Program-made: the position numbers and the translations under genes | The notes under the pieces: model-generated | Databases searched by the model: none | What the model was told of the DNA's origin: nothing | What the model saw: the letters and a program-made list of their open reading frames with translations, nothing else | Origin: a virus | Taxonomy: Duplodnaviria > Heunggongvirae > Uroviricota > Caudoviricetes | Direction: 5' to 3' (one strand) | DNA: 42,427 bases | IMG/VR virus record: IMGVR_UViG_2563366875_000004 | Location: 1 to 42,427 of that record | Shown: in pieces, positions 3,868 through 34,499 of the stretch | Layout: each line of letters opens with the position of its first letter | Numbering within the stretch: position 1 is the stretch's first letter

Positions 3868-4071
3868 TTACGGTGCTGTTTTAAGTCCCGCCGGGATTTC
3901 GTTATTGTCCATGTGAATAACTTTATCAACCGGATAACAGTTGCCGGGAATTTTCTGTTCCGCTGCGGCAGCCATGCATTCTTCCATTGAATCACGTATG
4001 TCAATAATAAGGTCAAGCGGCTCGCCCGTATTAAGAAAAACCGTCAGAACGAGTGCAAATGATGTATTCAT
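3868..4071 (-). CDS. Hypothetical small protein (67 aa), leftward early operon
   Basis: Internal ATG at 4069-4071 preceded by AAAGGA; ATGA overlap with stop of upstream ORF (translational coupling). Confidence 0.45.
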   Translation of the reverse strand: MNTSFALVLTVFLNTGEPLDLIIDIRDSMEECMAAAAEQKIPGNCYPVDKVIHMDNNEIPAGLKTAP

Positions 4072-4256
4072 TGCCAGTATCCTTTTTGCATCAGACGTAA
4101 ACGGGCCAGCATTGAAACAATGCATATTTGATTTAATAGCTCCCGTTCGTGTTTTCTCTTATTAATGGCATCTTCAGTAAATACAGGGTTACTGATTTTG
4201 ACACCAATTTCAAAGCAACCTTCAGACGTATTAACGTTTGGTAATAACGTTTCCAT
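4068..4256 (-). CDS. Hypothetical small protein (62 aa), leftward early operon
   Basis: ATG at 4254-4256 preceded by GAGGA at 8 nt; coupled to downstream ORF. Confidence 0.45.
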   Translation of the reverse strand: METLLPNVNTSEGCFEIGVKISNPVFTEDAINKRKHERELLNQICIVSMLARLRLMQKGYWQ

Positions 4257-4277
4257 TATCGCGTCCTCAACAATGAA

Positions 4278-4431
4278 TTTTGTGATGCGGTGCCTGGTGC
4301 CTCCAGGTGACGTTAACCAGTTAACAATTAACGCCGGATACAGAGAACCCACCCATAAGAACCAATACGGAAGTCAACTGGCCTTTTTAACTGTTCCGCG
4401 TGCGCTGAGCCGCATTCACCGCATCACAAAA
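4278..4431. repeat. Perfect 15-bp inverted repeat pair TTTTGTGATGCGGTG / CACCGCATCACAAAA separated by 124 bp
   Basis: Read directly from sequence (4278-4292 and 4417-4431); internal GTTAAC-containing sub-palindromes; lies in an ORF-free stretch. Confidence 0.6.
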
Positions 4432-4827
4432 TTCACTTTAAAAAGGGCGGACATCAGCCAGCAATGAAAACTGATGCCGCCAAAAGGTAATCAACATGGG
4501 TTGTTGCAGCGGGGTTGTCACTCAAGCGTATGGTCAACCAGACAACCCGGTGCTCCACAGGGGAGGGAGAATAGTACCCCTGCCATACTTACCGCCGCGC
4601 CATTTCGCGGATTGCCACAACCGGAAGCGTACGGTCGAATTAAATTTAACGACAAGCCTCATAGGTGAAGGCCTTCGCCGTACGCTTTCGTGTTATGCCC
4701 TGACTTTTCAGGGATATATCCTTTCAGTAAACTGTCAGTGCCGGATGCTCACCCGTGTCCGGCGCACGACCACACGTGGCAGCGTGTTGGTCTCCATTTT
4801 TAACCCAGAACCCAAATGGAGGATAAA

Positions 4828-5885: not shown

Positions 5886-6344
5886 TTATTGATGTTTGTT
5901 ACGTTTGCGAGCTTCTAGTAGCTCGGTGAATAGGCGATTAAAATTCTCAACGCGGGCACGGAGTTCGCTGATTTGTGCTTGCTGCTCTGATTTTGGAAGT
6001 GCGCGATACAATCGCAACATCTCCAACTCATCTTCCGATAAGTCTAAGGCGCTGTTGAGTGCAACTGGTGGATCTGGTGTTTTATCCTCGTCACCAAACA
6101 GTATCCAAGTTGGTGAACATTGCAATACCTCAGCCAGGCGATGCAAATTTTGCCCGCGCGGGGCTGTATGGTCGCTTTCCCATAGTGAAATTGATGAGCC
6201 AGATACGCCAGCAGCTTTGCTTAAATCGTTTTGACTTAAACCAACCTGTTTGCGTCTTTCTCTAATTCGTTGACCTAAAGTTTTCTCGTTCATATTTAGA
6301 TATCTTAATAACCCTTGACTTGAGATTCCTTGAGTGATTACCAT
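5886..6344 (-). CDS. Prophage repressor, HTH XRE/CI-type, without a LexA-like peptidase domain (152 aa; alternative start at 6293)
   Basis: HTH motif QVGLSQNDLSKAAGVSGSSISLWE; divergent from cro-like gene; C-terminal part is helical and lacks a Ser/Lys autocleavage module. Confidence 0.8.
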   Translation of the reverse strand: MVITQGISSQGLLRYLNMNEKTLGQRIRERRKQVGLSQNDLSKAAGVSGSSISLWESDHTAPRGQNLHRLAEVLQCSPTWILFGDEDKTPDPPVALNSALDLSEDELEMLRLYRALPKSEQQAQISELRARVENFNRLFTELLEARKRNKHQ

Positions 6345-12049: not shown

Positions 12050-12199
12050 TTTTATACCTTTTGTGTTGTGTGAAGGAGCAGTATAGTCAGAAATGAGACA
12101 AGTGAAAGGGGATAGAAAGTAATAGTTTGTTTTTGTAGAATTGCTGCGGGTGCTTGAGGCTATCTGCCTCAGGCATGAACACCAAAAGGCAGATAGAGA

Positions 12200-12303
12200 A
12201 AAGCCCCAGTTAACATTACGCGTCCTGCAAGACGCTTAACATTAATCTGAGGCCATATCTATGCGACACATAGAGATTAGCCTCTTACGGACCGAAAGGT
12301 CAA
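12200..12303 (-). ncRNA. Sok-like antisense RNA with its promoter (approximate bounds)
   Basis: Minus-strand -35 TTGACC (12298-12303) and -10 TAATCT (12274-12279), 18-nt spacer, reading antisense across the mok start; 3' end not defined. Confidence 0.4.
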
Positions 12304-12320
12304 GGAGAAGCAGGCTATGA
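12261..12320 (+). CDS. mok-like upstream leader ORF (19 codons) coupled to hok
   Basis: ATG 12261; stop TGA overlaps the hok ATG (CTATGA). Confidence 0.3.
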   Translation: MRHIEISLLRTERSRRSRL

Positions 12321-12472
12321 AGCAGCAAAAGGCGATGTTAATCGCCCTGATCGTCATCTGTTTAACCGTCATAGTGACGGCACTGGTAACGAGGAAAGAC
12401 CTCTGCGAGGTACGAATCCGAACCGGTCAGACGGAGGTCGCTGTCTTCACAGCTTACGAACCTGAGGAGTAA
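12317..12472 (+). CDS. hok: Hok/Gef-family type I toxin (51 aa)
   Basis: MKQQKAMLIALIVICLTVIVTALVTRKDLCEVRIRTGQTEVAVFTAYEPEE closely matches Gef/HokC as recalled; GGAG RBS; mRNA 5' segment 12146-12159 is complementary to 3' segment 12522-12536 (fbi-like). Confidence 0.8.
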   Translation: MKQQKAMLIALIVICLTVIVTALVTRKDLCEVRIRTGQTEVAVFTAYEPEE

Positions 12473-12542
12473 GAGACCAGGCGAGGGAGAAATCCCTCGC
12501 CACCTCTGATGTGTCAGGCATCCTCAACGCACCCGCACTTAA

Positions 12543-12567
12543 CCCGCTTCGGCGGGTTTTTGTTTTT
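12543..12567 (+). terminator. Rho-independent terminator of the hok mRNA
   Basis: CCCGC-TTCG-GCGGG stem-loop followed by TTTTTGTTTTT. Confidence 0.6.
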
Positions 12568-12692
12568 ATTTTCAACGCGTTTGAAGTTCTGGATGGTGCC
12601 GGAATAGAATCAAAAATACTTAAGTAGCGCGCAGGGAGAAGAGGGATGGACCCCAAATGGGGGAGTGCTATTTATCTGGAAGGATTCTGTTG

Positions 12693-12953
12693 ATGAAAAT
12701 CGAAGAATTACGTGAAATTTTTAGTGAAGATGGCCTCTATACTGTGCGCGTTGAGAATGGCGCTATTGTCAGCCACTGCCGTATTAAATGTTTACAGTCT
12801 CAACAAAGGAAGAGTGGAACTGCGTTAATTCATTTGGTGGATGGGCTTGTGACGGATGGTTTTATTTTGCGTGCAAATGAATTTGTCACATCGTTGCCGT
12901 CTCTGAAAGAAGCTGGGATTAAGGCTGGTTTTTCTGCTTTTGAAGATGTGTGA
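12693..12953 (+). CDS. Hypothetical protein (86 aa), nin-like region
   Basis: ATG at 12693 after GGA; AT-rich codon usage suggests a foreign insert. Confidence 0.45.
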   Translation: MKIEELREIFSEDGLYTVRVENGAIVSHCRIKCLQSQQRKSGTALIHLVDGLVTDGFILRANEFVTSLPSLKEAGIKAGFSAFEDV

Positions 12954-13299: not shown

Positions 13300-14349
13300 G
13301 TGCGGGTATTACTTCGACCTGTTCCGGTACCGGAACTCGGGCTGGTGGTCCTTAAGCCTGGTCGTGAATCCATGCAGGTATTTCATAACCCTCGAGTGCT
13401 GGTGGAGCCTGAACCGAAAAGCATGCGCGGTCTGCCGTCCGGAGTCGTCCCTGCCGTCCGCCAGCCGCTGGTGGAGGATAAATCATTACTGCCATTTTTC
13501 AGCAATGAGCGTGTGATTCGTGCTGCTGGCGGCGCTGGTGCACTGTCTGACTGGCTGTTGCGTCATGTCAAATCCTGCCAGTGGCCTCATGGTGACTATC
13601 ATCACAGTGAAATCGTCATACATCGTTATGGTACCGGCGCGATGGTGTTGTGCTGGCACTGCGACAACCAGCTGCGTGACCAGACTTCCGAATCACTCGG
13701 GCAACTTGCTCACCAAAACCTGTCAGCATGGATGATTGACGTCATCCGTCACGCAATGAATGGCACACAGGAGCGGGAATTATCGCTGGCTGAATTATCC
13801 TGGTGGGCAGTCTGCAATCAGGTGGCGGACGCGCTACCGGAGACAGTATTACGTCGTTCTCTGAGGTTACGTGCGGAAAAAATCCGCTCGGTGTACCGCG
13901 AAAGCGACATCATGCCGGGAGAGCAGACAGCCACCAGCATACTGAAGCAGCGCACAAAAAATATTGTGCTATCGCCTCACGCCCACCAGCAACAGAACTC
14001 ACCGCAGGAAAAGGCGGTGGTCAGCATTGCTGTTGATCCTGAGTCTCCGGAATCTTTCATGAAGCGGCCTAAACGTCGCCGTTGGGTAAATGAGAAATAC
14101 ACGCGCTGGGTGAAGACACAGCCGTGTGCGTGTTGCGGTAAGCCAGCCGACGATCCCCATCACCTGATTGGTCATGGTCAGGGCGGAATGGGGACAAAAG
14201 CCCACGATATTTTCACGCTACCGCTGTGTCGGGAGCATCACAACGAGCTTCATGCGGATCCGCTGGCGTTCGAAGAAAAGCATGGTTCCCAGGTTGATTT
14301 AATTTTTCGTTTTCTTGATCACGCCTTTGCAACCGGCGTGCTCGGGTAA
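13300..14349 (+). CDS. DUF968-family (YdfU-like) protein with C-terminal HNH-like Cys/His motif
   Basis: GTG start after GGAGG; C-terminus CACCGKPADDPHHLIGHG...CREHHNELH. Confidence 0.65.
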   Translation: MRVLLRPVPVPELGLVVLKPGRESMQVFHNPRVLVEPEPKSMRGLPSGVVPAVRQPLVEDKSLLPFFSNERVIRAAGGAGALSDWLLRHVKSCQWPHGDYHHSEIVIHRYGTGAMVLCWHCDNQLRDQTSESLGQLAHQNLSAWMIDVIRHAMNGTQERELSLAELSWWAVCNQVADALPETVLRRSLRLRAEKIRSVYRESDIMPGEQTATSILKQRTKNIVLSPHAHQQQNSPQEKAVVSIAVDPESPESFMKRPKRRRWVNEKYTRWVKTQPCACCGKPADDPHHLIGHGQGGMGTKAHDIFTLPLCREHHNELHADPLAFEEKHGSQVDLIFRFLDHAFATGVLG

Positions 14350-14361
14350 AAGAGGTTACTG

Positions 14362-14820
14362 ATGCGTATAGAGTTTGTTTTGCCTTACCCGCCGACGGTG
14401 AACACCTACTGGCGACGTCGTGGCAGCACATATTTTGTATCAAAAGCCGGTGAGCGTTATCGCCGTGATGTGGCGCTTATTGTTCGCCAGCAGCGACTGA
14501 AATTAAACCTGTCCGGAAGGCTGGCGATAAAGATTATTGCAGAGCCACCGGATAAGCGCCGTCGTGACTTGGACAATATTCTGAAAGCACCACTGGATGC
14601 ACTGACACATGCGGGGTTGCTTATCGACGACGAGCAGTTTGATGAAATCAATATTGTGCGCGGACTGCCTGTTCCTGGTGGTCGGTTGGGTGTGAAGATT
14701 TACGAAATTACAGGTGATAACGATGGCGCGAGATATTCAGCAGGTTATGGAGCGGTGGGGAGCATGGGCTGCAAACAATCACGAAGATGTGTCATGGGCG
14801 TCAATCGCTGCTGGTTTTAA
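14362..14820 (+). CDS. rusA: RusA-family Holliday junction resolvase (with C-terminal extension overlapping Q)
   Basis: N-terminal [19 protein letters not shown] and [26 protein letters not shown] are RusA hallmarks. Confidence 0.8.
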
Positions 14821-15109
14821 AGGATTAATCCCGCCGAAAGTGAAATCACGCCCTCAGTGTTCTGATGATGATGCAATGATAATTTGTGGCTGTATGGCCC
14901 GGTTGAACAAGAAAAATCAGGATTTGCACGATTTGTTGGTGGATTATTACGTAGGTGGAATGACTTTTATGGGGCTGGCACGAAAGCATGGGTGTTCGGA
15001 TACCTGTATTGGCAAGCGCCTGCAGAAAGCGGAAGGGGTTATTGATGGCATGTTGATGATGCTTGATATCCGACTGGAGATGGACCGATACGTAGAACGA
15101 ATTATGTAG
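14723..15109 (+). CDS. Short Q-like late antiterminator (QuuD-like, 128 aa)
   Basis: ATG after AGGTGA; size and position immediately upstream of a pR'-like promoter and terminator. Confidence 0.65.
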
Positions 15110-15113
15110 GCGC

Positions 15114-15143
15114 TTGACCAGACACATTGTCCGGGGCTATATT
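15114..15143 (+). promoter_or_regulatory. pR'-like late promoter (-35 TTGACC, 18-nt spacer, -10 TATATT)
   Basis: Directly after the Q stop; followed about 65 nt later by a terminator, as for lambda pR'/6S RNA/tR'. Confidence 0.4.
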
Positions 15144-15206
15144 TCCGACGCAACCGCAAAATCGGTTGTCGGGATTAGCACCCCGGATGTTTACGGAGCG
15201 ATATGA

Positions 15207-15226
15207 GACGCGCCCGCGTCTTTTTT
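15207..15226 (+). terminator. tR'-like intrinsic terminator
   Basis: GACGC-tetraloop-GCGTC followed by TTTTTT. Confidence 0.5.
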
Positions 15227-15390
15227 CATATCGTTTGCACAGTCACATTCGCGATTAATGGCGGGCTGTGTGGGGGAGCCGAAAGGCTCGCCGGTTTCCG
15301 TACCCGGTAGTGCTAACCCCGCACAGTTCGCCACCACGATGATTAGCACCTGACGGTGGCGATAATGTCCAAATGTACGGAGTTATCGTT

Positions 15391-15954
15391 ATGACCACTC
15401 AGATTTCTGTCGAAACTCTTTCCCCAATTACACACAACCAAATTCCCGTTATCACTACCGAGTTACTGGCACAGCTTTACGGTACAGATTCAGATAACAT
15501 CAAAAAGAATTATTCGCGTAACGCAGATCGTTTTTATGAAGGTAAGCACTTCTACAAAGTGATTGGTGATGAACTAAAGAATTTGCGGGTGACTTTAAGT
15601 CACTCACAAAATCCCATCTCTCCCAAAACCCGCTCGCTCATACTCTGGACAGAACGCGGAGCAGCCCGCCACGCAAAAATGCTGGAAACCGATCAGGCAT
15701 GGGAGGTATTCGAAAAACTGGAAGATTGTTATTTCAGCCGAAAACAACCAGCTGCAGCACAAAACACATCTATCGAAAATGATGGATGCGCATTACTGAT
15801 CCACTTCGATAAACACGGTCAGGTCGACTTCACGGAAAAAGTACCCGCCGATGCGATGGTATGCACTCTGGAACGGTTCAAATTTTATCTGGAACAACGC
15901 GGCTGGATCGTTGCCCGTAAAGAACAACTGGTGGAATGGTTGATGCGGTTTTAG
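15391..15954 (+). CDS. ORF6N/Rha-like DNA-binding domain protein (candidate antirepressor or regulator), 187 aa
   Basis: N-terminal pattern ITTELLAQLYGTDSDNIKKNYSRNADRFYEGKHFYKV plus LILWTERGAARHAKMLETDQAWEVFEKLE resembles ORF6N-type domains as recalled; GGAG RBS. Confidence 0.55.
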   Translation: MTTQISVETLSPITHNQIPVITTELLAQLYGTDSDNIKKNYSRNADRFYEGKHFYKVIGDELKNLRVTLSHSQNPISPKTRSLILWTERGAARHAKMLETDQAWEVFEKLEDCYFSRKQPAAAQNTSIENDGCALLIHFDKHGQVDFTEKVPADAMVCTLERFKFYLEQRGWIVARKEQLVEWLMRF

Positions 15955-15999
15955 GTGCGACAGCCCCACCATCTTTATAGTAGTGGGGCTGAAAGTTCA

Positions 16000-16545
16000 T
16001 TACTGAGTGACTTTTAGCCCACTAAATTTAAAAATATACTCTGGTTCTGTTACTTTTCCATAGAGGGTCATGCTTGATTCAAGGATGCAGTCCTTTGAAT
16101 TAGGGATAAAACGCCCTGAAAATGAAACTATATCACCAGGTTTTAATTCAGAGGCCACCGTGAAAATTTCAGAGTCAGGGCTGATAAGAGTATGATGACG
16201 AGAATCGGAAAATGCGTTATTCCAGGTTTTAACTTCAATGTCTGGTGCTATCTCCAAAGCCAACACGCCGTAACCATCACTATTGGCAGAAACAGTTTTT
16301 ACAGTACCAATCCAGTTTTTAACTTTTTTATCTTTTCTTAAGGTTGCGCAAACCGCTTTGTCTCGTTTTGCTTTTATTCCGCCCAGCTTCATGTCGTTAT
16401 CAACACCTTTAGCTGATGAAATTGCGTTTGAGACCGCCTCGATGAACTTTTCCTGCTGCTCAGGCATCTGGTAAGCAAAGGCTGGTGTCTGAAATATGGT
16501 AACCGAAAACGCTATGGTCATGATTTTTGTAAAAACACTATTCAT
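16000..16545 (-). CDS. Secreted (Sec signal peptide) protein of unknown function, 181 aa; AT-rich cargo gene
   Basis: Signal peptide MNSVFTKIMTIAFSVTIFQTPAFA with AFA cleavage motif; opposite strand to the late operon; lower GC than neighbours. Confidence 0.65.
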   Translation of the reverse strand: MNSVFTKIMTIAFSVTIFQTPAFAYQMPEQQEKFIEAVSNAISSAKGVDNDMKLGGIKAKRDKAVCATLRKDKKVKNWIGTVKTVSANSDGYGVLALEIAPDIEVKTWNNAFSDSRHHTLISPDSEIFTVASELKPGDIVSFSGRFIPNSKDCILESSMTLYGKVTEPEYIFKFSGLKVTQ

Positions 16546-16737
16546 ATTTTTCCCTAAAACAAGAAATAATGAAACAAAGAGCGCTCAAATATAAGCTTGC
16601 TTAGATTACCCATCCCTTAAACCCTTATCAACAGTATGTATTTGGGTTGTATTGTTCATCATGTGTGTTTAGGGCTTTACGATCGTAAAAAGTTGAATAT
16701 CCTGTTAAGAGTTGTTACTTCGCCACACAGCTTAAAC

Positions 16738-16759
16738 CCGCCGCCAGGCGGTTTTTTTT
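16738..16759 (+). terminator. Intrinsic terminator
   Basis: CCGCC-GCCA-GGCGG followed by T8. Confidence 0.55.
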
Positions 16760-16956: not shown

Positions 16957-17032
<76 letters not shown>

Positions 17033-17035
17033 TAT

Positions 17036-17110
<75 letters not shown>

Positions 17111-17379
17111 GCAGAGGACGATAGATACTAGGTTGTGTTAGGCACTGACACATTTTATGTGGGGCGTTTTTCCTGACTCCTTACCTCGCCCTGTACTGTA
17201 ATGAGTGATATCGGTTGCAGCACCAGTGCCGTTTTTTACGCCACCGGAATGGTGCATTATTGGTAGAGATTTGCAATGTCTCTGGCAGGGGCCGGTGATG
17301 CATCATTCTGGTGTTGTAAATAACACCATGACATTGAGATTAATCATATATTAAGCAAAACCTGGAAACACATCCTTAA

Positions 17380-17404
17380 CCGCCTCCACCAGGCGGTTTT
17401 TTTT
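17380..17404 (+). terminator. Intrinsic terminator downstream of the tRNA pair
   Basis: CCGCCT-CCACC-AGGCGG followed by T8. Confidence 0.6.
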
Positions 17405-17731: not shown

Positions 17732-17754
17732 GGGCCGCTGGTGGCCCTTTTTTA
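17732..17754 (+). terminator. Intrinsic terminator immediately upstream of the holin gene
   Basis: GGGCC-GCTGGT-GGCCC followed by TTTTTTATTT; 18 nt before the holin RBS. Confidence 0.5.
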
Positions 17755-17772
17755 TTTACAGGAGAAAAAAGT

Positions 17773-18165
17773 ATGTCTGAACCCTTATCCGGTTCCGGCA
17801 CGGCTGCGGCGCTCGGCGGGGCGACGGTATTCGGGCTGTTTACCGGAACGGATTTCGGGATTGTGTTTGGTGCGTTCGCCGGGGCGTTATTTGTGGCAAC
17901 AATTCCGCAGGCGCTTTCAGCCTGGCGTGTGGCAGCGCATTTTCTGGTGTCGTTCATTATCGGCGTGCTGGGCGCAGAGGTTCTGGCATCCTGGCTGGTA
18001 AAGCATACAGAGTTTGATGGTGCACCTGTTGACGCATTGTGTGCAGTGCTGGTGTCTGTATTGTCGGTAAAAGTGCTGTCCTTTGTGCACAGGCAGGACG
18101 TTATATCACTGATGTCCTGTCTGCTCTCCCGCCTGAAGAGTGGAGGAGGCGACAATGTTAAGTAA
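17773..18165 (+). CDS. Holin-like membrane protein (130 aa)
   Basis: AGGAGAAAAAAGT RBS; multiple Gly/Ala-rich transmembrane segments; first gene of the lysis cassette. Confidence 0.6.
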   Translation: MSEPLSGSGTAAALGGATVFGLFTGTDFGIVFGAFAGALFVATIPQALSAWRVAAHFLVSFIIGVLGAEVLASWLVKHTEFDGAPVDALCAVLVSVLSVKVLSFVHRQDVISLMSCLLSRLKSGGGDNVK

Positions 18166-32055: not shown

Positions 32056-33447
32056 ATGGATTTTCCCTCCTTACCTTCTTTGTCCTCTTTGTTTTCTTCA
32101 TCTTCCGGAACGACCTGGCGCGATAATCTTTACGACGCTTCATTTCGTGGTGTTCCGTTTTCGGTGGAAAGCGATGAGGGTACGTTCGGACGCCGCGTTC
32201 AGGTCCATGAATATCCAAACCGTGACAAACCGTACACGGAAGATCTCGGGCGTGCCACGCGACGGCTGACGATTAATGCGTATCTCGTTGGTGATGATTA
32301 CGCAGAGCAGCGCGATCGGCTGATTACCGCGATTGAAACCGCCGGGCCGGGGACACTGATCCATCCGCAGTTCGGTGAAATGCAGGGCTGTATTGACGGA
32401 CAGGTGACCGTTTCTCACTCCAGCACTGAAGGCCGTATGTGCCGGGTTTCATTTCAGTTTGTTGAGAGCGGGGAACTGTCATTTCCGGTCGCCGGAGCCG
32501 CAACCGCCAGAAAACTGGAGGAGTCGTCCGGATTCCTGGATGAGCTGATTGAAGACATGTTCGGCGATTTTGATCTTGCGGGAATATCGGACTTTATTCA
32601 GAACGATGTTATTGCCCGGGCAACCGATATGCTGGGAACCGTTCAGACGGCTTTCAGAATGGTTAATTCTGCTGTTTCTGCCGGAATGAGGCTGATGCAG
32701 GGCGATTTATCCGTCATTCTGATGCCGCCATCGGTTGCCAGTGATTTTGTGCATACGTTGCAGGATACCTGGCGGGCAGGAACCAGACTGGTGGATAACA
32801 CACAGGATCTGGTGCAGTCCATAACAACAATGTCAGGCATTACGCTGGATCCAGGACTGGCACCGCGTGCGGTGTGGCCCACAGATTCCGCATCAGTTGT
32901 CAGGCAAAAACAGCAGACAAATCTGGTGGCTGCAGTCATCCGGACGACGGCAATCAGCGAGGCTGCAAGGGCGGTCACTTCACTGCCGCAACCCGGAAGT
33001 CTGGTGAAAAATCAGCAGGCGGTTGCGGCTGTTGGTGGTTCCACTGAACGTCAGTCCGATATTATTCATGTTTCTCATCCGGCACTTGACAGCGTGGCAG
33101 CCAGCACAGAACAGGATGAGACAGCGCAACCACCCACGCGGGAAAATCTCACCATCATACGCGAATCACTGAACGCGGCGATTGAACAGGAGCTCAGACG
33201 AACGACGGATGACAGGCTGTTTTTTCAGCTGACGTCATTACGTACAGAACTGAACCGGGATATTCAGGCCCGTCTGGTTCAGACGGAGGAAACCGCAGAG
33301 CGAACGCCAGCGGAAGTTCTGCCTGCGCTTGTTCTGGCTGCATCATGGTACGACGATGCGTCCCGTGAAACTGATATCCTGGATCGAAATGCCATCTCCC
33401 ATCCGGGCTTTGTTCCGGTCAGAGCATTAAGGGTACCCGTCAGATGA
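32056..33447 (+). CDS. DNA circulation protein (Mu N-like)
   Basis: N-terminal region ...FRGVPFSVESDEGTFGRRVQVHEYPNRDKPYTEDLG typical of Mu gpN-like proteins. Confidence 0.7.
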   Translation: MDFPSLPSLSSLFSSSSGTTWRDNLYDASFRGVPFSVESDEGTFGRRVQVHEYPNRDKPYTEDLGRATRRLTINAYLVGDDYAEQRDRLITAIETAGPGTLIHPQFGEMQGCIDGQVTVSHSSTEGRMCRVSFQFVESGELSFPVAGAATARKLEESSGFLDELIEDMFGDFDLAGISDFIQNDVIARATDMLGTVQTAFRMVNSAVSAGMRLMQGDLSVILMPPSVASDFVHTLQDTWRAGTRLVDNTQDLVQSITTMSGITLDPGLAPRAVWPTDSASVVRQKQQTNLVAAVIRTTAISEAARAVTSLPQPGSLVKNQQAVAAVGGSTERQSDIIHVSHPALDSVAASTEQDETAQPPTRENLTIIRESLNAAIEQELRRTTDDRLFFQLTSLRTELNRDIQARLVQTEETAERTPAEVLPALVLAASWYDDASRETDILDRNAISHPGFVPVRALRVPVR

Positions 33448-34499
33448 ATAATACCGTTTTACTTCGGGTTTCCGGTCGCGAATGGGGCGGCTGGACATCC
33501 GTCCGTATCAGTGCGGGCATTAACCGTATTGCCCGGGATTTTAATGTTGCCATTACCACCCGCTGGCCCGGCAGCCGGGATTATCAGCCCCGGATAAAAA
33601 ATGGTGAGCTGGTTGAAGTGCTTATCGGGGATGAGCCTGTGCTCACCGGATATGTGGAGGCACTACCGCTTCGTTATGACGCCAGCAGCGTCAGCATGGG
33701 AATTGTCGGGCGAAGCAAAACAGCCGATCTGGTTGACTGCTCTGCTTTGCCACTCCAGCAGAGCGGAAAAAACCTGCTCAGAATAGTCAGTGAACTGGCT
33801 GCGCCATTTGGCATCACCGTTGTTGATGCTGGCGTGCCGCAGACAGCGGTGATTGATGCCCAGCCGGAACATGGCGAAACCGTTGCCGATTGTCTTAACC
33901 GGTTACTGGGGCAGGTTCAGACGCTGGCTTATGACGATGAATGCGGGCGACTGGTTCTGGGAAAACCCGGAACAGGTAAAGCGGCGACGGCGCTGGTTCT
34001 GGGAGAGAATATTCTTTCCTGTGACACGGAAAGAAGCATCAGAGAGCGGTTTTCTGAATATCAGGTCAGTGGGCAGCGACCGGGCAACGACGATGATTTT
34101 GGTGAGGCTACCATTGCCGCAATACGACAGACTATTCAGGACAGTGGTGTGACCCGTTATCGCCCTTTGTTGATTCAGCAGTCAGGCACAGCAACGACAG
34201 CAACCTGTAAGGCCCGTTGTGAATTTGAAGCGCGCCAACGGGCTGCACTTACCCGTGAGACAACATATACAGTTCAGGGCTGGCGGCAGGGCAGTGGCGC
34301 GTTATGGCGTCCGGGGTTATCTGTCATCGTTTTCGACCCGCTGAATAATTTTGATAATGATGAACTGGTGATCGCAGAAGTCACCTATAACCAGGACGAC
34401 CGGGGCACGACGACTGAATTACGGGTTGGCCCGGCAGATGCTTATCTCCCCGAGCCTGTTACCGCCAGGAAGAAAAAAAATGTTGAGGAGGATTTCTGA
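33444..34499 (+). CDS. Baseplate hub protein (Mu P / gpD-like)
   Basis: Position and size in the Mu-like baseplate module. Confidence 0.65.
   Translation: MNNTVLLRVSGREWGGWTSVRISAGINRIARDFNVAITTRWPGSRDYQPRIKNGELVEVLIGDEPVLTGYVEALPLRYDASSVSMGIVGRSKTADLVDCSALPLQQSGKNLLRIVSELAAPFGITVVDAGVPQTAVIDAQPEHGETVADCLNRLLGQVQTLAYDDECGRLVLGKPGTGKAATALVLGENILSCDTERSIRERFSEYQVSGQRPGNDDDFGEATIAAIRQTIQDSGVTRYRPLLIQQSGTATTATCKARCEFEARQRAALTRETTYTVQGWRQGSGALWRPGLSVIVFDPLNNFDNDELVIAEVTYNQDDRGTTTELRVGPADAYLPEPVTARKKKNVEEDF

Follow-up and report, generated by a model that had tools for sequence, protein, structure and literature searches.

An AnrP-family ORF6N gene, the likely payload of an IsrK/C4 RNA cassette, lies between Q and the probable late promoter of a Qin-like prophage

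Results

The ant gene and its product

During our analysis of IMG/VR record IMGVR_UViG_2563366875_000004 (the window, by which we mean the whole stretch of 42,427 nucleotides (nt)), a Qin-like lambdoid prophage, we followed up an open reading frame (ORF) at 15391-15954 that a first-pass annotation had called ORF6N/Rha-like and had proposed as a candidate antirepressor. The ORF, which we refer to as ant, proved to be real: it lies on the + strand, encodes 187 residues, has a Shine-Dalgarno sequence (GGAG, 15379-15382) 8 nt 5' of its ATG, and its product matched families in both Pfam and PHROG. A search with the protein identified 4482 homologs at E-values of 1e-5 or less, far more than expected by chance, the best being 99% identical and from E. 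coli; most were labeled 'ORF6N domain-containing protein' and came from E. coli, E. albertii, Salmonella and Shigella. There is an alternative in-frame ATG at 15373, but no ribosome-binding site precedes it, and most homologs begin with MTTQ. The Pfam match, to ORF6N (PF10543, residues 12-97, E-value 1.1e-20, 74.2 bits relative to a curated cut-off of 27.8, which it passed), bore out one half of the earlier label, while the Rha half was not supported, there being no match to Rha (PF09669) at E-values of 0.01 or less. ORF6N was the sole Pfam match, the C-terminal domain of the P22 antirepressor (PF10548) was not found, and an NCBIfam search returned no family for the protein.

Over their full lengths the protein and AnrP of Gifsy-1 (STM2616/SL2578; 187 vs 187 residues) are 53% identical (E-value 3e-63), and there was likewise a full-length match to PHROG 2379, 'anti-repressor' (E-value 5e-88). 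We are nearly certain that ant is an AnrP-family payload of the cassette described below, which contains two RNAs, IsrK and C4. No sequence relative of the protein was found among solved structures. In an AlphaFold model the N-domain (approximately residues 10-115) was confident, with predicted local distance difference test (pLDDT) scores of 80-92, residues 118-130 formed a disordered linker, and the small C-domain (approximately residues 131-187) was poorly defined, consisting of a beta-hairpin and two helices. This C-domain (searched as residues 122-187) recurs with ORF6N, Rha-like or AntA-like N-domains, and because of this it appears to behave like a shuffled module. We also noted that an 'ant' gene in the P1-like phage RCS47, with 76% identity over residues 18-126, sits between pacB and c1, outside immI.

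An RNA leader upstream of ant

The cassette has a Q-type antiterminator gene immediately 5' of it. In the 280-nt gap between Q and ant we found matches to two Rfam families above their gathering scores, IsrK followed by C4 antisense RNA, preceded by what a promoter scan (10/12) predicted to be the cassette's own sigma-70 promoter (TTGACC-18-TATATT, 15114-15143, +), which is homologous to the isrK promoter of Gifsy-1. The -35 and -10 of this promoter are identical in five aligned loci that lie behind unrelated genes, and the stop codon of the upstream gene adjoins the -35 in loci behind NinE and behind three types of Q. IsrK itself (RF01394, 15150-15226, +) scored 74.3 bits (gathering score 50), and the same stretch overlaps RF03163, c4-a1b1, described as the 'a1,b1 targets of C4', at 45.6 bits, which is below that family's gathering score of 46.7. 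A terminator scan placed an intrinsic terminator at its end (hairpin 15205-15222 followed by a T run), and within it lie two mimics of C4 targets, a1 (15173-15181) and b1 (15191-15198).

The C4-type RNA (RF01695, 15254-15338, +) scored 77.2 bits (gathering score 45), and its predicted fold, at -49 kcal/mol, has the topology given in Rfam. We assigned b' to its hairpin-2 loop (UCCGUAC, 15297-15303) and a' to the joining region (GUGCUAACC, 15310-15318). Candidate targets for both follow on the + strand: a2 (GAUUAGCAC, 15341-15349) is in the loop of a CCACC/GGUGG hairpin, and b2 (GUACGGAG, 15375-15382) spans the Shine-Dalgarno sequence of ant.

We considered, and rejected, the hairpin-1 loop of IsrK (GCAAAAUC, 15156-15163) as a1, as the annotation of P1 and covariation point to the hairpin-2 loop for a1 and to the single strand after it for b1. 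The hairpin-1 loop is nearly invariant across related leaders, its stem covaries, it includes a -10-like CAAAAT at +8 to +13, and no partner for it was found within C4; it might be a site of Hfq binding or a pause element.

The promoter-IsrK-C4 leader is conserved in Gifsy-1 (5' of anrP) and in phage pPE4, and both Phi24B and PhiR5_2 have it in their nin region; all three RNA matches of the window recurred in Gifsy-1 and in the Phi24B nin region. The C4 match of Gifsy-1, at 69 bits, lies between isrK and anrP in what is known as the 'orf45' region, and the window has a counterpart of orf45 in the ORF list, a 31-codon upstream ORF (15258-15353, +) that begins within C4. This ORF ends 37 nt 5' of the ant ATG and has no AUGA overlap with ant. 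Among 53 unique leaders the 45-codon, AUGA-overlapping form typical of orf45 was present in just five, and eight had no AUG, which argues that the conserved element of the leader is the RNA and not the upstream ORF.

Several database entries touch on these leaders. The gene calls of payloads P0209, P0213 and P0215 open with 'MVGRAGEPRGSP...', which is translated C4 RNA and likely reflects misannotated start codons; such starts also reveal C4 leaders before Rha-like and AntA-like genes. The leader DNA in PP818812, entered as 'Actinobacillus phage vB_Apl-pPE4', is 87.6% identical to that of the window; this record has hok/sok and lambdoid genes of enterobacterial type, and its stated host looks doubtful.

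Covarying complementarity across loci

We recovered 120 loci with 60 unique leaders from IMG/VR by scanning for the invariant core of C4 hairpin 1. In these, the hairpin-2 loop (b') occurred in 16 variants, which with few exceptions had a Watson-Crick complement of 5-10 nt at a fixed site just 5' of the next start codon and another inside IsrK; non-cognate b' combinations averaged 3.8 nt. The joining region (a') occurred in 15 variants, nearly all with an exact 7-nt complement at both fixed positions and a few with 5-6 nt; at the a2 position the 7-nt complement was exact in every variant but one (6 nt), and non-cognate a' combinations had means of 2.7-3.6 nt. These complementarities follow the heteroimmunity logic of P1/P7, with many specificities.

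The likeness to the immI region of P1/P7 (c4-icd-ant1/ant2) extends to layout. The P1 record annotates a1/b1, c4 and a2/b2; there the C4 joining region serves as a' and the hairpin-2 loop as b', and b2 falls on the icd ribosome-binding site. The window has the same C4 fold, with a1/b1 upstream and a2/b2 downstream on one transcript, with b2 at the ribosome-binding site of whichever frame comes first downstream and with two short complementary stretches that set the specificity. It differs from immI in having no icd-like ORF before ant (by the ORF list), in a b2 that falls on the ribosome-binding site of ant, in an a1/b1 segment that ends in a terminator and would give a separate small RNA, in the absence of a C1-type operator, and in a protein that is not homologous to P1 Ant1/2 (BLASTP against Ant1, E-value 5).

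Among 111 loci, the upstream neighbors of the cassette were NinE (36), a Gifsy-type (Q82-type) antQ (27), a third Q-like gene (18), the Q type of the window (7), and others. Because it is found behind NinE as well as several types of Q, the cassette appears to be a portable, mobile accessory element.

Position relative to Q and the late promoter

The Q gene of the window (14714-15109, +; likely start ATG 14723) belongs to the Q21/933W family (Pfam PF06530, E-value 2.5e-52); its product shares 80-83% identity with the Q proteins of 933W and other Stx phages and is unrelated to AntQ of Gifsy-1. The first-pass annotation took the promoter after Q to be pR', which would make ant the first gene of the late operon and its product a Q-dependent, LexA-independent late antirepressor. 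There were grounds for this, as the promoter at 15114-15143 begins 5 nt past the Q stop codon, the usual site of pR', a short terminated RNA comes next as in lambda, in 52 of the 111 loci the cassette adjoins a Q gene, of one of three types, and the CAAAAT in GCAAAAUC could, by inference, be a sigma-dependent pause element. However, this promoter and its leader are also found downstream of NinE and of higBA, at a distance from any Q gene, and behind unrelated Q families, and a better candidate for pR' lies downstream of ant. The segment at 16676-16759 (+) has a 933W-type -35 (TTTACG, 16676-16681) and -10 (TATCCT, 16698-16703), and was recognized by its homology (79-80% identity over 94 nt, E-value 1e-16) to the segment of Phi24B directly after Q, which is annotated as containing pR', qut and the first terminator. 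It includes a promoter-proximal terminator (hairpin 16738-16751 and T8, by terminator scan), and a Phi24B-type pR'-qut-terminator segment was not present directly after the window's Q. In E. coli ECOR29 the same pR' element begins 16 nt past the stop codon of the ORF6N gene. We judge from this homology that 16676-16759 is probably the true late promoter, from which a short, StxS-like leader RNA would be made, and consider it very unlikely that the promoter after Q serves as pR'; the idea of a dual role for it was abandoned on finding the 933W-type homolog further downstream.

With this assignment pR' is ~1.57 kb from Q, and the order in the window is Q, the cassette with ant, a reverse gene (16000-16545), pR', tRNA genes and lysis genes. 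Since the cognate pR' and its terminator lie 3' of ant, ant is outside the late operon; it is not a late gene but one encoded at the far end of the early-right transcript, downstream of a promoter of its own and of the IsrK terminator.

The reverse gene (16000-16545, -) is convergent with ant, encodes 181 residues with a signal-peptide-like N-terminus, had no Pfam, PHROG or NCBIfam match, and is missing in the ECOR29 relative. We take it to be a second insertion in the interval from ant to pR'; its likely role is that of an accessory (lysogenic conversion) gene. Between the two convergent genes is a GC-rich hairpin (GCCCCAC...GUGGGGC, 15963-15989) with a T run on neither strand; it was not called by the terminator scan and may be a weak bidirectional terminator. 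Further downstream, 3' of pR', there are genes for tRNA-Thr and tRNA-Gly (16957-17110, +), as in Stx phages, and terminator-like hairpins at 17134-17152 and 17378-17398 (by scan) and at ~17732-17757 (by eye) precede the holin gene at 17773.

Gifsy-1 is built alike. Its IsrJ (33406-33480, -, in the Gifsy-1 record) and the IsrJ promoter are homologous to a stretch overlapping the 3' ends of Q82-type Q genes in phages of Enterobacter and Klebsiella, e.g., a counterpart at 1501-1610 in CobraSix, where the order is ninG-ylcG-Q-IsrJ-like-tRNA-Arg-holin, without a cassette. By this homology IsrJ looks like the pR' leader RNA of Gifsy-1.

Comparison with Gifsy-1 and Stx phages

The first-pass annotation had held that the arrangement is not the one known from Gifsy-type phages, which is not the case: the order antQ-isrK-orf45-anrP is exactly that published for Gifsy-1 (Hershko-Shalev et al. 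2016, PMC4825925), and the window locus is a member of this arrangement. In that study, read-through of the isrK terminator is partial and the long mRNA stays untranslated; when IsrK is provided in trans, anrP translation rises ~140-fold; and AnrP raises the mRNA of the antQ operon and of SL2581 and induces Gifsy-1. Gifsy-1 and the window share the promoter, IsrK with its terminator, the C4-like region (orf45/STnc1160 in Gifsy-1) and a 187-residue ORF6N protein; in both, the cassette comes right after a Q-type antiterminator gene, a reverse accessory gene and tRNA genes lie between cassette and lysis genes, and the prophage repressor is short and non-cleavable. They differ in the Q family (Q82-type in Gifsy-1, 933W/Q21-type in the window), in b' (CGGUGAU vs UCCGUAC) and a' (ACGCCAA vs GUGCUAA), and in the upstream ORF, which is AUGA-coupled in Gifsy-1 whereas the 31-codon ORF of the window is not coupled to ant. 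In addition, the C-domains are only ~30% identical, and the window has a Rem homolog (described below) in place of dinI-gfoA-irsA.

The Ant proteins of Stx phages (Phi24B, 933W, Min27 and VT2-Sakai), encoded in the nin region, are also related. Their leader has 79% nucleotide identity to that of the window, with IsrK and C4 matches, and the ORF6N N-terminal halves are 49-65% identical over residues 1-157, with similarity ending at ~157; in Phi24B the ant gene is likewise upstream of pR'. The Stx phages differ from the window in that their cassette is between ninE and roi and not after Q, and in that the C-terminus of Ant is P22-Ant-like. The resident repressor of Stx phages is a cleavable CI. 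An ant knockout of Phi24B reduced pR'-lux during induction to 27-56% of wild type (PMC3064807).

The resident repressor and a second candidate antirepressor

The presumed target of an antirepressor in this prophage is a DicA-type repressor of 135 residues (5886-6293, -), with 57% identity to K-12 DicA and 28% to GfoR of Gifsy-1 (E-value 2e-10). Its only Pfam match was to the helix-turn-helix domain HTH_3, the NCBIfam DicA model matched 135/135 positions (238 bits), and no S24 peptidase or autocleavage domain was found in the Pfam search, which confirms the earlier view that the repressor is non-cleavable. DicA, RacR and the Gifsy repressors have been grouped as one non-cleavable class under the control of protein antirepressors (PMC3121763, PMC10448788). 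The window further contains DicC, YdfX, YdfA, YdfC, DicB and a dicF-like region. The DicB homolog (89% identity) and a stretch with 82% identity to the dicF region of K-12 are at 4071-4566 (-), and DicF had no match in the scan of the window at Rfam gathering scores.

Although the ant product had been put forward as having the only recognizable regulator-type domain outside the immunity region, we identified a homolog of Rem at 12693-12953 (+; 86 residues, 70% identity to K-12 Rem, E-value 1e-33; phrog_340, E-value 5e-23). It is preceded by a terminator (12541-12558) and then by a promoter-like site (12581-12610), and inspection by eye of the ~130 nt 5' of the gene revealed no LexA box. The rightward gene order is hok/sok, the rem homolog, a small ORF, DUF968 (YdfU-like), RusA and Q, and the order hok-rem-DUF968-Q is the same as in Qin. 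The hok/sok module (12148-12473, +; Rfam sok 108 bits, hok ORF 12318-12473) is directly 5' of rem, like hokD in Qin.

Rem raises the DicA-controlled promoter dicBp 165-fold by derepression (PMC10448788). This and the shared gene order count in favor of an explanation in which Rem is the cognate antirepressor and the ORF6N protein has other uses, e.g., against the repressors of co-resident prophages (cross-talk) or in a role outside immunity. Consistent with such a division, the cassette appears to be a mobile, freely recombining accessory element, and Gifsy and Fels antirepressors work across prophages (PMC3121763). Carrying two candidates would also parallel Gifsy-1, which has both GfoA and AnrP. 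Against this, AnrP alone induces its own prophage, Gifsy-1 (PMC4825925), and the C-domain of the ant protein has a weak match to the PHROG family of Rem (phrog_340, E-value 2.4e-5), which would fit the same class of target although the link was not reproduced. We regard this explanation as improbable. The C-domain match is itself a lead only, and we do not claim it: phrog_340 matched the C-domain of AnrP at an E-value of 0.009 and GfoA at 0.23, relative to 4e-21 for K-12 Rem; hhalign comparisons of the ant C-domain with the Rem family (phrog_340 / PF27490) gave P-values of 0.014-0.026 with a shifting alignment register, and our own profile comparisons gave no consistent alignment; a custom hidden Markov model (HMM) of the C-domain gave typical Rem proteins only 0-6 bits; and the AlphaFold model of Rem (pLDDT 49) was too poor for comparison. 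We also came across a 69-residue database protein with Rem-like residues 1-24 followed by a C-domain-like stretch (17 bits with the custom HMM), which may be a recombinant or an artifact.

There is no visible SOS input to either of the two candidates that this phage carries. A search for LexA-like boxes (CTGT-N8-ACAG, at most one mismatch) found none in 14122-16279, as the first-pass annotation had also observed for the region upstream of ant, and tblastn searches of the window with DinI, GfoA and IrsA found no dinI-gfoA-irsA module. In having no LexA box, no GfoA-like protein and no dinI operon, the window gene is unlike the LexA-controlled antirepressors (GfoA/GftA, Tum and AntC). The presumed class of repressor is shared with the targets of GfoA, GfhA and GftA (Gifsy) and of Rem (Qin), and the genes are in each case outside the immunity region, but those proteins have a single domain of 70-90 residues and the Gifsy ones are LexA-controlled in the dinI operon. 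What the first-pass annotation overlooked was control at the level of RNA, by IsrK and C4, standing in for control by LexA.

Discussion

We propose that the locus is a portable, P1/P7 immI-like cassette, placed between Q and pR', that carries a C4-silenced, IsrK-relieved antirepressor of the AnrP family, a reading that we think is probably correct. It builds on features observed directly, i.e., the homology of the protein, the two RNA families, the covariation of complementary sites and the placement of ant with respect to pR', together with results obtained for homologs, namely IsrK-dependent translation of AnrP and AnrP-dependent induction of Gifsy-1, and a contribution of Phi24B Ant to induction. 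In this proposal the cassette and the reverse accessory gene would have been inserted between a 933W-type Q and its cognate pR', which would leave ant as the last gene of the early-right transcript with a promoter of its own. That promoter (15114-15143) would be constitutive, with most transcripts ending at the IsrK terminator to give a 77-nt IsrK RNA, while transcripts that read through would contain the C4-type antisense RNA and then ant. Pairing of a' with a2 and of b' with b2 would cover the Shine-Dalgarno sequence, with the result that ant would be transcribed yet untranslated; abundant IsrK, which contains the a1 and b1 copies, would compete for C4 and so turn ant translation on. Occlusion of the ribosome-binding site by C4, relieved by titration with IsrK, is the most economical reading of these features.

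The protein would most likely antagonize the non-cleavable, DicA-type repressor of its own prophage, and perhaps similar repressors in other prophages as well, and would thereby trigger or reinforce LexA-independent induction. By analogy with its homologs we consider the role of antagonist somewhat likely, and we infer that it would be exercised by physical inactivation of the repressor. The candidacy of ant as an antirepressor is thus a reasonable one, given a full-length AnrP homolog and a repressor of the GfoR class, even though the positional argument first made for it was wrong. A different function would be that of a DNA-binding transcription factor which, through its ORF6N domain, acts on phage promoters or host genes and not on the repressor. 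The N-domain model does resemble winged-helix and MerR-type DNA-binding domains, and weakly Mbp1/APSES; Pfam places ORF6N among predicted DNA-binding phage domains; and the AnrP paper (PMC4825925) reports higher transcription of the antQ operon by a route that is not demonstrated there. On the other hand, the N-domain is common to Phi24B Ant, whose C-terminus is like that of P22 Ant, a protein that binds its repressor (cited in PMC3064807); the control system is the same as that which P1 uses for a true antirepressor; and AnrP induces a prophage whose repressor is inactivated by protein antirepressors (PMC4825925, PMC3121763). We think it unlikely that the protein acts in this way.

Several points weigh against our proposal of a C4-silenced, IsrK-relieved antirepressor. 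RNAduplex energies computed on the window sequence alone were no better than those of shuffled controls, and for this reason the case for pairing rests on covariation across loci. The Rem homolog already gives the prophage a relative of a DicA antirepressor with experimental support. Stx phages, where CI is cleavable, likewise have ORF6N Ant proteins, whose presence is therefore not tied to non-cleavable repressors. The mechanism published for Gifsy-1 is not transferable unchanged, as the orf45-anrP coupling is not conserved in the window. In the sections of PMC4825925 covered, no binding of AnrP to a repressor is described. Finally, the published cis mutant isrK G28A raises basal translation, which is unexplained by a simple decoy model.

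A broader reading would join these elements. In prophages of the DicA/GfoR class, which do not sense RecA directly, a switch set by the ratio of IsrK to C4, with at least 15-16 orthogonal pairing variants, would replace LexA as the trigger of induction and would control modular antirepressors that have a Rem/GfoA-like repressor-binding C-domain, on a cassette that was repeatedly inserted exactly at the Q/pR' junction. As part of the same reading, the Gifsy-1 'orf45/STnc1160' would be a C4 antisense RNA, IsrK a target-mimic decoy and IsrJ the pR' leader RNA. We offer this combination tentatively, and regard it, taken as a whole with these reassignments, as rather doubtful.

The finding of the gene is in itself of little weight, as its arrangement was published for Gifsy-1 in 2016 and its family counts thousands of members among E. 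coli, Salmonella and their relatives. What is corrected is the map of transcription in the prophage, with pR' probably at 16676 and not at 15114. A prophage with two candidate antirepressors, a non-cleavable DicA-type repressor and no LexA input also makes a handy case for studying the induction of SOS-blind prophages. The three-way covariation ties the IsrK story of Gifsy-1 to the C4 antisense mechanism of P1/P7, and points to a simpler account of the mechanism published for Gifsy-1, with C4 as the element that would occlude the ribosome-binding site and IsrK as the would-be decoy.

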